Source: Nitrospirota bacterium (GTDB taxonomy: Bacteria; Nitrospirota; Thermodesulfovibrionia; Thermodesulfovibrionales; Dissulfurispiraceae). From it: 64,000 nucleotides of DNA. Under the pieces are notes generated by a model that was given only the letters and a program-made list of their open reading frames with translations, made no database searches and had not been told where the DNA came from. Where the stretch lies: contig JBFMCP010000013.1 in NCBI GenBank assembly GCA_040754455.1, positions 1-64,000 on the forward strand, read 5' to 3'. A program made the translations under genes and the position numbers. Below, in pieces: positions 38,336 through 46,555 of this stretch (position 1 is its first letter; the number at the start of each line of letters is the position of its first letter).

Positions 38336-38704
38336 TTATTCTTCCAGTTTTGCTGCCAGACGGGCAACGTGGATGACGAGGTTCCTGGAGCTCTTGCTCT
38401 TAATCCTTTTGAAGTATCTGAGCAGCTTGCTCTCGGCGGGGGTGGCATACTGGGGCTGCTCCTCTGCGATCATCGATGCGGCAGAGGGTTCGAAAAAACA
38501 CGACAGCGGCACTGAAAGGGCATCGGCGATGACCTGAATGTTTTCGACATTGAGCTTGTTCTTCCCGTTCTCATAGCGCTGCACCTGCTGGTAGGTGACG
38601 CCGAGGATATCGGCAAGCTCTTGCTGTGACAACTTGAGTGCGCTCCGCCGTTTCTTGATCTTTTCGCCTATTTCCCTGCTCGTGATGAGCTTTCTTTTCC
38701 GCAT
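38336..38704 (-). CDS. XRE-family helix-turn-helix regulator
   Basis: IG.KIK.RR..LKLSQQELA..LGVTYQQVQRYE.G. Confidence 0.9.
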   Translation of the reverse strand: MRKRKLITSREIGEKIKKRRSALKLSQQELADILGVTYQQVQRYENGKNKLNVENIQVIADALSVPLSCFFEPSAASMIAEEQPQYATPAESKLLRYFKRIKSKSSRNLVIHVARLAAKLEE

Positions 38705-38956
38705 GCAGTTCACTATAACAACCGGTCAAATTGGTTTACTACTAACTATAAGGTGCATTGACTTTTACTATTCAAAATGAGTATAAATATGAGACCCGAT
38801 CCAAAAGACGTTGAAGAGATGCGGAAGCGGAAAGCAGCACCGATAGCATGCAAAGAGGAAATGATGAGGCCGGAAGCATCGGCTGTACTTTTTATATTGA
38901 ATCAGTAGCAGTTGCAGCGATACAGTAGTTCCAAAAAGAAGGGGGGCTTTTTGGAT

Positions 38957-39325
38957 TTGCCCACAAGAAAGGCCGTAGTCGTTGATGATGACCAAGATGT
39001 GCTGTCAGTGATTGTTGAAATCATGACGCTCCTTGGATTTGACGTTGAAGGCTTTTTATGTCCTGTTGCTGCATTGGAGCATATAAAAGGCAATGAGGTG
39101 GACATCGTCCTTACTGATTTTAAAATGCCTGAGATGGACGGGTTTGAGTTCGTGAAAAATATCCGGGAAATCAACAACAGCGTTCCCATCGTGATGGTTA
39201 CCGGAGAGGAGGATACCACAGTGTTCAGACAGAAGGCGTTCAGAGAAGGGGTGACCGAGATGTTCAGCAAGCCCTTTGATTTTCTCGAATTCGGCATGGC
39301 CATCAGACGTCTCGTGAAGCGATGA
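38957..39325 (+). CDS. Single-domain response regulator (CheY-like); start uncertain
   Basis: VVDDD, LTDFKMPEMDG, MVTG, KPF. Confidence 0.85.
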   Translation: MPTRKAVVVDDDQDVLSVIVEIMTLLGFDVEGFLCPVAALEHIKGNEVDIVLTDFKMPEMDGFEFVKNIREINNSVPIVMVTGEEDTTVFRQKAFREGVTEMFSKPFDFLEFGMAIRRLVKR

Positions 39326-42245: not shown

Positions 42246-42499
42246 ATCATCGTCTCCTCGTCCTTACGGCGCTCCTCTTTGTTTGTCACGAGGGAGCATC
42301 AAACCAAATTGCACTGGCAATTACCAGCCTTATGAGCATTCGTAAGAATAACACTCGCCGGGGGAAATTGACAAGGGAGAGATGCAGAAGTCGGCAGAGG
42401 GTAGACAGACGCACAGCGCGGGAACAGTTGACTACTCTTTGAAATTAACCCCTCTAGAAATGACCGTCAGGAGCCATCGCAGGCCGGCCCCAGGACGTG

Positions 42500-42850
42500 C
42501 TATTCGGCATTTTTCAGGAATTTGGCCATGCCGGCCCGCTCGGATAGCAGCTCGGAGAGCACCTCTTTCATGAGGCTGCATACCTCGATGATTTTCGGAT
42601 GGGCGATGCTGTAATGGACGCTGACCCCGTCCCTTCTGCTCTTCAATATCCCTTTCATCTTCATCACCGAAAGGTGTTGTGATATGTTTGTTTTGGGCAT
42701 ATCGAGCGCTTCAACGAGCTCGGCAACCGTCTTCTCTCCGTCCTTCAGGACGGTGAGTATCTCGATCCTCACAGGACTTGCCAGTATCTTGCAGATCTCC
42801 GCCTGAAGCTCATAAACCGATGTCGCTCTCTTCCTGTTGGCCAAGTTCAA
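42500..42850 (-). CDS. ArsR/SmtB-family regulator; start uncertain
   Basis: QAEICK.LA.PVR..IL, ISQHL, RRDG..V.Y; GGAGGAGG before TTG. Confidence 0.88.
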   Translation of the reverse strand: MNLANRKRATSVYELQAEICKILASPVRIEILTVLKDGEKTVAELVEALDMPKTNISQHLSVMKMKGILKSRRDGVSVHYSIAHPKIIEVCSLMKEVLSELLSERAGMAKFLKNAE

Positions 42851-42993
42851 ACACCCTCCTCCATGCGGACGCCCTTTGTGCCCATTCATTCCGGAGCAGC
42901 CGATGCTCCTCGCATGACTATAATATTATGATTATCATGGATCGGGCGCGGTGCTGTCTTTTGAAATCTTGCCGGAAATATCGGAAAATTGCT

Positions 42994-43887
42994 CTAACAG
43001 CTTTTACGATACTTGAGAGGTGTTATGGAGGTAAACTTTCGAAATGTGTCAGTGAAATGGCTCTGGCTCTGGAAGCCCACGGAATAAGCAATGACGGCCA
43101 GAGGCAAGTCGGTCTCCCTTAAAAGCGTCTTGGCCCGCTCGATTCTCTGCTCTATGAGATAGCGATGAGGAGTACGGCCCGTTGTATGCTTGAACGACCG
43201 GGCAAAGTAGTAGGGACTCATGCCCAGCTCCTGTGCCACCTCGGTAAGGGTAATGTCTTTTTCCAAATTATCATGTATAAACTCGATGGCTCTCTCTAGT
43301 TTTCTTTGAGGCAGGGCACCCTTCATGGTCTCCGGCAATTTTCCATCGGCTGAATATTTGCTCAAGAGAAGAGCTGCCAGGGCGTAAGCAAGCGATTCGC
43401 CGTAAAGACGACCCGCATGACCTCCTGTCTCCACCTCTGTTTTGAATGCCATAACTATCTGCCGTATCTGTTCATCGAAGATGCCTACGCGCTGCACGAT
43501 CTGAATACGGTCCTCATATGTCAGTTCGTGTGCGGCCCGTGCCATGATATGCGGAGCGAGGGAGAGCACTAAAAGATCCGCATCCTCAGTCAGACGGACC
43601 TTGCGTGATGCATTAAGGGGATGAATACCCAACGAGCCGGGGGCCGTTATTCCGCGCTTGAACCGTCCATTCTCTTTGTATTCAAGCAGGGCGGGACTGC
43701 TCAGCTGGCAGACGATCATATAGGTTTGGCATACGCCCTCCGGCAATTCCTGTGCAGGCAGGCGGTGCCGTTCGAGAATAATCCCGTCCCACGGCGCTTT
43801 CCGGCTCGTAAGCACCGGCGCCCCTGGATAGACGGGGCGGCATTTTTTTGTGGTGATGTCGGTTTGAAAAATATTGCTCTGAGCCAT
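42994..43887 (-). CDS. AraC-family transcriptional regulator
   Basis: MSPYYFARSFK..TG.TP, IAYSVGFQSQSHFT..FRK. Confidence 0.92.
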   Translation of the reverse strand: MAQSNIFQTDITTKKCRPVYPGAPVLTSRKAPWDGIILERHRLPAQELPEGVCQTYMIVCQLSSPALLEYKENGRFKRGITAPGSLGIHPLNASRKVRLTEDADLLVLSLAPHIMARAAHELTYEDRIQIVQRVGIFDEQIRQIVMAFKTEVETGGHAGRLYGESLAYALAALLLSKYSADGKLPETMKGALPQRKLERAIEFIHDNLEKDITLTEVAQELGMSPYYFARSFKHTTGRTPHRYLIEQRIERAKTLLRETDLPLAVIAYSVGFQSQSHFTDTFRKFTSITPLKYRKSC

Positions 43888-44020
43888 CGCTGCCTCGTGA
43901 GAGCGTCGTGCCCTTGAAGTCTATATAATAACCGAAGCCACCGGTAAATTAAAATTCACCTTAGCCCTGAAGATTGTCCCATGAAGACCGTTTTCTAATA
44001 ACTGGTTGGACAACAAAAAA

Positions 44021-44596
44021 ATGACTGAAAAATCTCTAGAACAAATTCTTCAAGAACAACGTAAGTATGCTGCTTTCTTCGAATGGCCTGACAAGCAGAG
44101 CAAGGAATGTGGCATCGTACAGTGCCTTTTGGAGAGCATGGAAAATCACGGCTTAGCTCCTTTCACAGGTTTGAGGCCAGGCCCTTCTCCAAATCACGCG
44201 CCTGACTGCATTGCTGAGGATAAATCTGGAGAAACGGTCGCCATAGAAGTCACCGAATTTGTGTCTCGAAAAGCCATTGAAATGAATCAAAGAGGCAAGA
44301 ACGTCTACCACTACTGGAAGCCCGATGAAGTCATCAACGAAGTAAAGAAAATCATCACCCAAAAGGATGGAGTTACATATAGAGGGGGACCATACTCCAA
44401 GATTGTCCTTGTAATCCACACAGATGAAATTGCTCTGGATCATGAAACATACAGCACCGTTCTGTCAGGGGCGGCATTTGAGGCGCAGACTATAGATGGG
44501 GCTTTTTTCCTGTTTTCATACCGTCCTCAGGTGAAAAGTTATCCACATGTGCAGCTCAATTTAATGTCCAACAAGCCTCTGGAGCCGATTCGCTGA
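44021..44596 (+). CDS. Cassette-encoded hypothetical protein, possibly PD-(D/E)XK nuclease-like
   Basis: ATG 10 nt after the core site; E...APDCIAEDKSGETVAIEVTE pattern; stop codon lies inside attC. Confidence 0.75.
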   Translation: MTEKSLEQILQEQRKYAAFFEWPDKQSKECGIVQCLLESMENHGLAPFTGLRPGPSPNHAPDCIAEDKSGETVAIEVTEFVSRKAIEMNQRGKNVYHYWKPDEVINEVKKIITQKDGVTYRGGPYSKIVLVIHTDEIALDHETYSTVLSGAAFEAQTIDGAFFLFSYRPQVKSYPHVQLNLMSNKPLEPIR

Positions 44597-44627
44597 CGCC
44601 CACGGCTCAGCGGCGAAACCGTTAATG
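44566..44627 (+). other. attC recombination site (62 bp)
   Basis: GTCCAAC-AA-GCC-T-CTG(G)AGCCG...CGGCTCAG-C-GGC-GAAACC-GTTAATG: imperfect hairpin with one extra base in L''. Confidence 0.8.
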
Positions 44628-44843
44628 ATGTAAGTTTCTACCACAAGTCCGTTCGCTTCAAGGTCTCCCAGCTCCGCGATGTCGCAGGTGGAGCCCTCAA
44701 TCATAACACGCAAAAAAAGTGAGTCTTTCAGAAAGAAGAGTATACGTCGTATTTCTAAATGAAAGAATTAGTGCTGGGAAGGATATCGGAAAAAGCTGAT
44801 GATCGACTTGCTCCGGGATTACTCGTAATAAGAACCTTAATCT

Positions 44844-46202
44844 CTACACGCCGAAGATTTTTCCGGGATTTATCATTCCCCTCGGATCGAAGACTTTTTT
44901 GATGCTTCTCATAAGCTCCATTTCCCGCTCTCTGATCTCCATGCCGAGGTAGGGCGCTTTAGTCACGCCGATACCGTGCTCTCCTGAGAGCGAGCCGCCG
45001 AGCCTGAGGGTGATCTCGAAGATCTTTTTTATCAGTTCCTGGCCTTTTGCATATTCTTCCCTGTTGTTCTTATCGACCATGATGTTGACGTGGAGGTTGC
45101 CGTCGCCGGCGTGGCCGAAGCTGACGATGGGGATGCGGCTCTCCTCGGACATCTTTCTCATCGCTATCAACATCGCGGGGATCTTGTCTCGAGGGACTAC
45201 AATATCTTCATTCAGCTTTGCCGGCTTGATGTGGTAGAGCGCCGGCGAAATCGAGCGCCGCGCTTCCCACAGCCGCTCGCGCGCGAGCGTGTCTTCTGCG
45301 ATGATCGCCTCGCCGCCGAGAGTGGTGCAGATGTCGACGACGCGCTCCGCTTCTTTTTTGATTGTCGCCGGGTAGCCGTCGAGCTCGATGAGGAGCAGGG
45401 CCTCGACATCGGTCGGCAGGCCGATAGGTTTGTAGTGCTCGATCGCCTCAATGGAAGAGCGGTCCATCAGTTCCATGGTCCTCGGTATTATCTTCGAAGT
45501 GATGATCTTCGATACCGCTGTCCCCGAGGCTTCAAGGTTGTCGAAGAGCACGAGGAGGGTTATGATGTCTTCAGGCATCGGGAGCATCTTGAGCCGTATT
45601 TTCGTCGTGAGCGCGAGCGTGCCTTCAGAGCCGACGATGAGATCTTTAAGATCATAGCCGACAACCCGCTTGTGGGTCCTTCCGCCCGTCTTTATCACCG
45701 AGCTGTCGGCGAGGACCGCTTCGATCTCCATGACGTAGTCACGGGTAACGCCGTATTTGACCGCTCTCGGGCCGCCGGCATTGGTCGCCACATTCCCGCC
45801 GATGGTGCTGATGTTCATGCTCGCGGGATCGGGCGGGTAGAAGTAGCCCAGGCATTCGAGCTCCTTCTGAAGCCGGCTGTTGACCACGCCCGGCTCTACG
45901 GTGGCGGTCATGTTCTTCGTGTCGATATCGAGAATCTTCTTCATCTTCTCGAAGCTGAGGACGATGCAGCTGCCGTAGGGGATTGCGGCGCCGGTCATGC
46001 CGGTGCCTGCGCCCCTCGCGACGATATGCAGGTTGTTTCCCCTGGCGTAGGTGACGAGTCTGGCGACTTCGTCAGTGTTCCTCGGCCACGCGACCGCCTG
46101 CGGCAGGGCGGCCTCTGCTTTCGATGCATCGAAGCTGTAGCAGATGAGATCTTCCTTTGCAGTAGAGATTTCGATGCCGGGGATGAGCGAGGTGTTTTTC
46201 AT
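44844..46202 (-). CDS. FAD-linked oxidase, GlcD/D-lactate dehydrogenase family
   Basis: RGAGTG, YPPDPAS, GGNVATNAGG, GSEGTL, FGHAGDGNLH, SGEHGIG, NPGK. Confidence 0.92.
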   Translation of the reverse strand: MKNTSLIPGIEISTAKEDLICYSFDASKAEAALPQAVAWPRNTDEVARLVTYARGNNLHIVARGAGTGMTGAAIPYGSCIVLSFEKMKKILDIDTKNMTATVEPGVVNSRLQKELECLGYFYPPDPASMNISTIGGNVATNAGGPRAVKYGVTRDYVMEIEAVLADSSVIKTGGRTHKRVVGYDLKDLIVGSEGTLALTTKIRLKMLPMPEDIITLLVLFDNLEASGTAVSKIITSKIIPRTMELMDRSSIEAIEHYKPIGLPTDVEALLLIELDGYPATIKKEAERVVDICTTLGGEAIIAEDTLARERLWEARRSISPALYHIKPAKLNEDIVVPRDKIPAMLIAMRKMSEESRIPIVSFGHAGDGNLHVNIMVDKNNREEYAKGQELIKKIFEITLRLGGSLSGEHGIGVTKAPYLGMEIREREMELMRSIKKVFDPRGMINPGKIFGV

Positions 46203-46339
46203 ATCCGGAAATTATACTAATTGTTCCGCAATTCTGTAAAACACTCAGAGAGGAATAGAGGTGCACGGTGTCCTTCTTGAGGGACTGCTCTCCGGGGAAG
46301 ATGAACTGAGGGCAACCACAACGTGCATTGCCCTGTTAT

Positions 46340-46555
46340 TCACGATGGTCTTCTGTTGGCTGAGCGGGCGCTTTTAAGCCGCTGGGCCCTGAGCCTCTTT
46401 CTCTTCGCTTCCCGCTGCTTCTGCTTTTCCTTCTCAGAGGGCTTCAGGTAGAAGCTTCTCTTCTTGAGCTCTTTAAGAAGCCCCTCTTTTTGCAACTGGC
46501 GCTTAAGGTCCTTAAGCGCTTTCTCGACATTGTTTCCATGAACGGTTATCTGCAA
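46340..46555 (-). CDS. rpsU: 30S ribosomal protein S21
   Basis: TTG start after AAGGAG; NVEKAL..LKR...KEG...E.KKR.FY.KPSE. Confidence 0.9.
   Translation of the reverse strand: MQITVHGNNVEKALKDLKRQLQKEGLLKELKKRSFYLKPSEKEKQKQREAKRKRLRAQRLKSARSANRRPS

Follow-up and report, generated by a model that had tools for sequence, protein, structure and literature searches.

How did a single gene, bounded by two inverse heptamers and followed by a hairpin, come to lie by itself in a bacterial chromosome? The locus is found in a window of 64 kb, by which we mean the whole stretch of DNA that was analysed, on contig C13 of the source genome. A sequence-only reading of this window had proposed that the gene is a complete integron gene cassette, inserted at a secondary GTT site by an integrase acting in trans. 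Our analysis leads us to assign a probability of roughly 0.78 to the reading that positions 44006–44621 are an integron gene cassette standing alone in the chromosome, that is, a SALIN (a single attC without a nearby integrase). The route by which the cassette arrived is less certain than its identity, and direct insertion by an integron integrase (IntI) between the G and the TT of a chromosomal site is the simplest reading of it.

The anatomy of the locus can be read directly from the letters. On the forward strand, the 5′ composite core site G^TTGGAC, of the form GTTRRRY, occupies 44005–44011; TTGGAC is its cassette part, and the layout of the core sites would place the crossover between 44005 and 44006. 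GTCCAAC, the exact reverse complement of GTTGGAC, follows at 44566–44572, and the next base pairs as well, which extends the complementarity to 8 bp. The bounds of the putative cassette (616 bp, 44006–44621, forward strand) were deduced from these two core sites. Between them lies one open reading frame (ORF) of 191 amino acids (44021–44596, forward strand), tightly framed by the core sites and oriented with the top strand of attC. Its ATG at 44021 is 16 nt past the left G (44005), an in-frame TTG is also present upstream at 44006, and its TGA stop codon (44594–44596) falls inside the loop of a 62-nt attC-like site (44566–44627, forward strand), with the result that the last nine codons (SNKPLEPIR) are encoded by attC. 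The imperfect hairpin of this site, in which CTG-G-AGCCG faces CGGCTCAG, carries one extra G and ends in GTTAATG (44621–44627); as integrated, this is the right junction, and only its G belongs to the cassette. The heptamers, the hairpin and its terminus had all been described correctly beforehand, and the integrated-cassette layout invoked for them is borne out both by this anatomy and by a homologue, discussed below, that is a bona fide cassette.

The left target flank TAACTGG (43999–44005, forward strand) begins at a structural polymorphism located at 43998/43999. An AraC-family regulator of 297 amino acids (42994–43887, reverse strand) is divergent from the cassette ORF and lies head-to-head with it, the two start codons being 133 bp apart. 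On the other side, an intergenic right flank of 216 bp (44628–44843) reaches the stop codon of a gene for an FAD-linked oxidase (glcD-like; 44844–46202, reverse strand), which is convergent with the cassette ORF. The GC content is 0.44–0.47 over 43900–44950, compared with about 0.55 in the flanks on both sides. The sole sigma-70-like match in 43700–44950 is on the minus strand, within the cassette ORF.

Is the hairpin an attC site? A scan of 43500–45100 against Rfam (E ≤ 10) returned three chance rows for snoRNAs or lncRNAs and none at the hairpin, and we therefore built attC covariance models of our own. Strict-consensus scanners, which demanded RYYYAAC...GTTRRRY together with a stable hairpin, gave almost no matches even in the arrays of relatives; because they missed nearly all of the attC sites there, we used a register-based scan instead, which looked for the canonical pairing register in the DNA beside 20 intI genes of relatives, on the side where the cassettes lie. 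Model R1 consists of 20 attC sites from the relatives' arrays, aligned with a hand-written structure, and model R2 of 17 short attC sites, four of them from the source genome; the scores given here come from these home-made models. Both models rank 44566–44627 first in the 64-kb window, at full length and with exact ends (R1, 13.7 bits, E 0.76; R2, 14.7 bits, E 0.42), and every other match in the window has an E value of 2.5 or worse. Both scores are low and lack significance genome-wide; the site is weaker and less canonical than the sequence-only reading implied, and it is absent from the genome-wide lists of both models at E ≤ 10. For comparison, 52 matches in the relatives' arrays score 14.9–82.5 bits, most of them above 30; the lowest-scoring ones, L073:4949 (16.2 bits) for instance, are regularly spaced inside the arrays and probably genuine.

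The structure of the site was compared with the rules for canonical attC sites given by Nivina et al. 2016 (PMC5027507), as set out in the portion of that article that deals with position 16, the 6-bp stem, the T at position 23/24, the spacers and the length of 57–141 nt. The candidate shares with the canonical sites described there the inverse cores RYYYAAC and GTTRRRY, an R″-arm spacer of 5 nt, extrahelical bases at positions 16 and 23, the 6-bp stem and, with its 62 nt, a length in the usual range. Its R″ (GTCCAAC, 44566–44572) fits RYYYAAC and is followed by the 5′ spacer (44573–44577), L″ (44578–44580), the first extrahelical base, a G (44581), and the stem, in which 44582–44587 pairs with 44603–44608 in the alignments of both R1 and R2. 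The second extrahelical base, A44588 at position 23, is unpaired and corresponds to a T on the bottom strand. The 5′ end of the cassette, G+TTGGAC, supplies an R′ that is the inverse of R″ at 7/7 positions, plus the one further base pair mentioned above.

In three respects, the candidate departs from the canonical form described in the same portion of PMC5027507. Beyond the second extrahelical base there is a single base pair, followed by the 12-nt loop (44590–44601) and the 3′ arm (44602–44611). The spacer before R′ is 9 nt long, where 5–6 nt is usual: an extra GGC (44612–44614), which lies within GCGGCG (44610–44615) and is treated as an insertion by R1 and R2 alike, precedes the spacer GAAACC (44615–44620) and R′ (GTTAATG, 44621–44627). 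In a model-fitted alignment of 48 distinct attC sites from relatives, this spacer is 6 nt long in 42 and 5 nt in 6, and longer in none. The extra GGC is apparently explained by duplication of a GCG triplet, judging from the repeat in which it sits. The first extrahelical base is at the right position (16), but it is a G on the top strand and thus a C on the bottom strand, where G is usual; at this position of the top strand, the 48 sites of the same model-fitted alignment have C (41 sites), A (5) or T (2), but no G. The other case of a G at position 16 is the attC site on contig C17 of the source genome, one of the 17 sites in the training alignment of R2.

Because the site is off-consensus in its 9-nt 3′ spacer and its bottom-strand C, the cassette may be poorly mobile or already fixed, and the spacer triplet may have crippled the attC. 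We also considered a more specific proposal, which we hold to be rather improbable: either the site is a working attC variant for the integrase of this clade, which has an N-terminal extension of about 140 residues, or the GCG duplication was a one-step 'locking' mutation.

Support independent of the hairpin is stronger, and much of it comes from homologues of the encoded protein. The 191-amino-acid protein has 57 homologues in a large protein collection, and one of them (L023, on a metagenome contig; 38% identity, E 1e-35) is a cassette within a textbook array. The L023 contig starts with GTTAGAC, and a 26-bit attC opens with the inverse of this heptamer, GTCTAAC, and ends in GTTATGC. The ATG of the homologue lies 10 nt past the G, and its stop codon is located within GCATAAC, the exact inverse core that opens the next attC, which is cut by the contig end. 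If R″ is read in frame, the letters YYYAAC are expected to leave an (S/P)N tail at the C-terminus; (S/P)N is found at the aligned C-terminus in 14 of the 24 close homologues (P0002–P0025), of which P0002–P0016 are 68–86% identical to the cassette protein. Tails of 0–9 residues come after it, and ten of these close homologues have the long form, SNxPLxxxx or something close to it. At the other end, the read-through N-termini of P0012 (..TALDGKKM) and P0015 (..RRWTTRKM) match the translation of the window from TTGGAC on and diverge upstream; this comparison of the 5′ boundary is a back-translation and hence weak. Another homologue (L024, 59% identity) has GTTGAAC 18 nt before its ATG, a distance similar to that in the window, and no attC was detected by R1 on this locus. 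Within L024:2200–4700, the homologue is truncated after about 96 residues and followed by a BrnT/BrnA-like pair; it is flanked on both sides by other toxin–antitoxin pairs, in a region that is rich in such pairs and array-like.

The association with attC is not a property of the whole family. An attC lies beside the gene in one of the eight homologue loci for which DNA was available (L019–L024, L076 and L077); on the other seven, R1 returned chance-level rows of at most 13.1 bits, most of them with the bulk of the model deleted. Three betaproteobacterial homologues show conserved synteny behind another gene. These two observations together indicate that the family is not confined to cassettes.

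Could an integrase have been available to the cassette? The statement that no integrase is present proved true of the window, since contig C13 has no match to TIGR02249 and no intI remnant, but not of the genome, which has an intI on C73 and an intI remnant on C17. The same division applies to the statement that there is no second attC: none better than E 2.5 occurs in the window, and further attC sites were found on C17, C21, C85 and C73. The cassette thus has neither an integrase nor another att site near it, as befits a SALIN, and the search for intI and similar attC sites elsewhere in the genome that had been suggested as a check was positive on both counts. The integrase encoded on C73 is full length, with 456 amino acids and about 370 bits to TIGR02249 (369.7–371; cut-off 265); the extension of about 140 residues precedes the TIGR02249 match (residues 143–455). 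On this 3.5-kb contig, the integron (C73:690–3473, locus L001) forms a complete platform: intI is accompanied by an attI-like junction that ends GTTGGGCGGC, by a first cassette and a 60-nt attC, and by a second ORF. The end of the contig resembles the start of a transposase gene. Because a cognate integrase is available in trans on C73, the insertion mechanism put forward by the sequence-only reading is plausible.

Other traces of integrons are dispersed through the genome. On the 66-kb contig C17, a degraded integron (38543–39288, locus L078) consists of an intI remnant of about 40 codons with a stop codon, beside a single cassette bounded by GTTAAAA and TTTTAAC. Its attC, of 72 nt (35.7 and 41.2 bits), is the one that resembles the candidate in having a G on the top strand as its first extrahelical base. 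The attC sites on C17, C21 and C85 score 22–55 bits. Two of them are located at the start of C21 (1–1300) around a small toxin–antitoxin-like gene pair, and C85 (1281 bp) is a whole cassette with both ends within attC sequence (loci L079 and L080 for C21 and C85, respectively), which suggests that a cassette array broke the assembly at C21/C85. An intergenic attC-like site on the minus strand of C5 (79482–79549) scores 22.6 bits with R2 (E 0.25 genome-wide), and GTTATGC, 146 nt upstream, is the inverse of its R″ ACATAAC at 6/7 bases; this site may be a second solitary cassette, one without an ORF. The source genome thus seems to contain several off-platform cassettes (on C13, C17 and perhaps C5).

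Might the resemblance to a cassette be accidental, the gene being an ordinary horizontally acquired one with an inverse heptamer and a weak hairpin beside it by coincidence? The hairpin alone is no more than chance. In its integrated form, it is no more stable than shuffled sequences (z −0.54, −0.70 and −0.86), and when it is closed with the cassette's own TTGGAC, as in the excised circle, z is −2.74; by this method, genuine attC sites, whether from the source genome or from relatives, have z values anywhere between −5.0 and +1.2, and fold stability therefore separates poorly. The E values of only 0.4–0.8 per window from the attC models mean that roughly 20–40 such matches are expected per genome, and the seven homologue loci on which no attC was detected are likewise what coincidence would predict. 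We scanned the whole genome for the composite, in which a loose attC-like stem is combined with the exact inverse heptamer 100–1500 nt upstream and with one ORF filling the interval, by criteria that were chosen after the candidate site had been seen. The abundance of the parts again fits an accident, with 807 loose sites in the genome, 55 of which have an inverse heptamer within 1.5 kb. However, four sites pass all three tests, and the RYYYAAC core is confined to two of these four, the candidate and the first cassette of the integron on C73; the frequency of the inverse heptamer is only 1.1e-5 per position. The full composite is more than chance. The cassette of the same layout in L023, the SN tails in 14 of 24 close homologues, and the agreement with the attC grammar of both extrahelical positions, 16 and 23, and of the 6-bp stem that separates them also speak against coincidence, to which we give very little credence.

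If the gene is a cassette, was it inserted at this place in this lineage? The empty site TAACTGG^TTAATG, which the sequence-only reading had predicted, was sought in 40 relatives and four metagenome runs and did not turn up in either. None of the 40 relatives has DNA matching the stretch from the araC gene to the cassette, or any matching DNA between the arsR-like and glcD-like genes, and none shares the flanks of the cassette at the DNA level. In the closest relative, the glcD-like gene has 74% identity and is adjoined by an arsR-like gene. In G001, of the same genus, an ArsR-family gene (L010:1013–1402) is the immediate neighbour of the glcD-like gene, whereas in the window an ArsR-family gene (42500–42889) is separated from it by the AraC gene and the cassette. 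A second arsR-like copy is present elsewhere in both the source genome and G001, so that the two neighbours may not be orthologous. Alignment of the locus DNA with G001 was uninformative except at the end of the FAD-linked oxidase (glcD-like) gene. Every relative inspected has a different synteny downstream of the glcD-like gene, which leaves no empty site to be read there. The idea that the insertion had disrupted a gene was also considered and rejected: a minus-strand frame is open across the reconstructed empty site, and the 50-amino-acid ORF at 44564–44713 on that strand matched, among 5.8 billion proteins, only the window's own 47-amino-acid copy.

The metagenomes contain the occupied form. 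Contigs of four runs from four studies (X4, X6, X8 and X10) were compared with the window over 42400–46400. Contigs of X4 span both junctions and those of X10 span the left one; in none of the four runs does a contig join across 44006–44621 in the manner of an empty site, and the stretches left uncovered in these runs prove nothing. At 43998/43999, 7 nt before the presumed crossover, the X4 contig is longer than the window by 47 letters, and the contigs of X6 and X8 break at this same point. To the left of it, 62 letters and 29 gap letters (42402–43998) separate the 32-kb contig of X4 from the window, and to the right 3 letters and 2 gap letters (43999–45409); a second X4 contig shows 2 differences over 45388–46400. 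From its position, this step in divergence suggests a recombination tract that ends beside the cassette.

Two other histories of a genuine cassette have to be weighed against these data. In one, insertion took place outside this lineage, and the cassette came together with its right flank by homologous recombination from a strain that already carried it at this site. The fall in X4 divergence from 62 + 29 to 3 + 2 letters, just 7 nt from the left end of the cassette, is what such a transfer would leave; metagenome contigs can, however, be chimeric, and the transfer would still be compatible with an earlier insertion by IntI in the strain from which the cassette came. We regard this history as possible but doubtful. 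In the other, a small array or a decayed integron has dwindled to this one cassette (a CALIN of which a single attC is left), the upstream attC or attI having been deleted, for example through replication slippage at the hairpin. The 47 extra letters of X4, which might be an unrelated indel, might instead be the completion of an upstream attC: TTCTAA (6), the 47 letters, TAACTG (6) and GTTGGAC add up to about 66 nt, a length typical of attC, by arithmetic from the lengths alone. The breaks of the X6 and X8 contigs at this point are in keeping with such a deletion, as are the presence in the same genome of the degraded integron on C17, with its intI remnant and one cassette, and the ease with which a folded attC is deleted by slippage according to the sections considered here of bioRxiv 10.1101/2022.09.11.507474. 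Yet neither R1 nor R2 gives a signal of an upstream attC or attI in the source genome, the upstream neighbour is the opposite-strand AraC gene of 297 amino acids, which is not cassette-like, and contig C13 yielded no intI remnant. Survival from an array therefore appears to us an improbable origin.

Direct insertion at a secondary site, which we prefer, fits signs of recent gain, namely the low GC content, the few carriers in the order (3/317 genomes, source genome included) and the lack of a DNA match in the 40 relatives. With no empty site found, we infer insertion at a secondary GTT from the occupied locus, and the insertion event, its empty site, the donor integrase, the expression of the gene and any loss of mobility all belong to the following model. 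The cassette would have existed as a free circle, the bottom strand of its attC folding into a hairpin, and an integron integrase would have recombined this folded strand with G^TT in the chromosome. The target GTT deduced in this way fits the GWT consensus. The enzyme was likely the intact C73 intI of the same genome, or else that of an earlier host, and replication would then have fixed the insertion. Such an event would leave G + TTGGAC as the left junction and, as the right, R″...L″...L′ followed by the G and the TT of the target. The cassette gene is promoterless by its nature, and its transcription would have to come from the divergent intergenic region next to the AraC-family gene.

Solitary cassettes and insertion at secondary sites are already known, and the present case is one ordinary example of them. 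In bioRxiv 10.1101/2022.09.11.507474, SALINs are reported together with IntI-mediated insertion at 5′-GWT-3′ sites of the genome (attG), and 3400 SALINs are counted in 2469 of 21,105 RefSeq genomes. Like the SALINs of that account, the cassette studied here consists of one ORF plus a single attC, neither intI nor a further att site lies near it, and its proposed target G^TT fits GWT. Unlike the attG hotspots of the same account, it lacks the CRGM motif at positions 6–9, where it has GATG. It also differs from the SALINs as described there in that its attC is below the strength accepted by a genome-wide scan, and in that a complete integron is present on another contig of the same genome; our case is, besides, known from its sequence alone. 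In its discussion, the preprint cites the aadB cassette at secondary sites in the plasmids RSF1010 and pRAY, which is likewise a lone cassette that lies at a non-att site and not in an integron. The cassettes in that case confer resistance and are carried by plasmids, just behind a promoter, whereas here a gene of unknown function lies in the chromosome of an environmental bacterium. As in a CALIN, an attC-bearing cassette is found away from an integrase, but a CALIN has at least two attC sites, and only one is detectable here.

Solitary cassettes show that integron integrases seed genes over chromosomes, away from the integron platform. The candidate also shows how weak or decaying attC sites can hide cassette-derived genes, its scores being too low for the genome-wide lists of R1 and R2, and it constitutes a natural test of the tolerance of integrases for spacer length and for the identity of the extrahelical base. 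If the site were a working variant, the grammar of attC would be looser than that built into current models, and solitary cassettes of this kind would systematically escape genome scans. If a 'locking' mutation had occurred, the locus would show a cassette gene turning into a fixed chromosomal gene, with strain polymorphism still visible in metagenomes. The example comes from an environmental lineage in whose order integrons are frequent: intI (TIGR02249, E ≤ 1e-60) was found in 57 of the 201 genomes searched, in 54 of them above the curated cut-off.

What might the cassette encode? The 191-amino-acid protein belongs to no Pfam, NCBIfam or PADLOC family, and its sequence found no match among 72,556 plasmids by tblastn. 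Its AlphaFold model has a pLDDT of 86 and a pTM of 0.82, the last six residues falling below a pLDDT of 50, and the C-terminal tail is predicted to be disordered, which, like the (S/P)N ends of the homologues, supports the cassette reading. The best structural match of the model is PA4535 of Pseudomonas aeruginosa (1y0k), with 135 residues aligned at an rmsd of 3.9 Å and a Z score of 8.9, which barely exceeds the Z of 7–8 that is typical of the best hit for unmatched models. The lower structural matches are mostly restriction-endonuclease-like folds of the PD-(D/E)xK type (SfsA, XisH, NucS, PaqCI and CdiA-CT nuclease domains). The predicted fold is thus like those of PA4535 and the PD-(D/E)xK nucleases; unlike in these, there is no match at the level of sequence to solved structures or to the families of the three collections named above, a profile search of PDB sequences having given nothing under E 0.07. 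A Foldseek search with the predicted fold returned no row at E 0.001 or better. With low confidence, we suggest from the model that the protein is nuclease-like, which would make the cassette gene a member of a widespread, uncharacterised family with a predicted nuclease-like fold. Among the named clusters of the ESM Atlas, DUF1780 comes closest (0.88), which we take as a lead only, and across the family the residues P-D-C and E-V-T-E are invariant.
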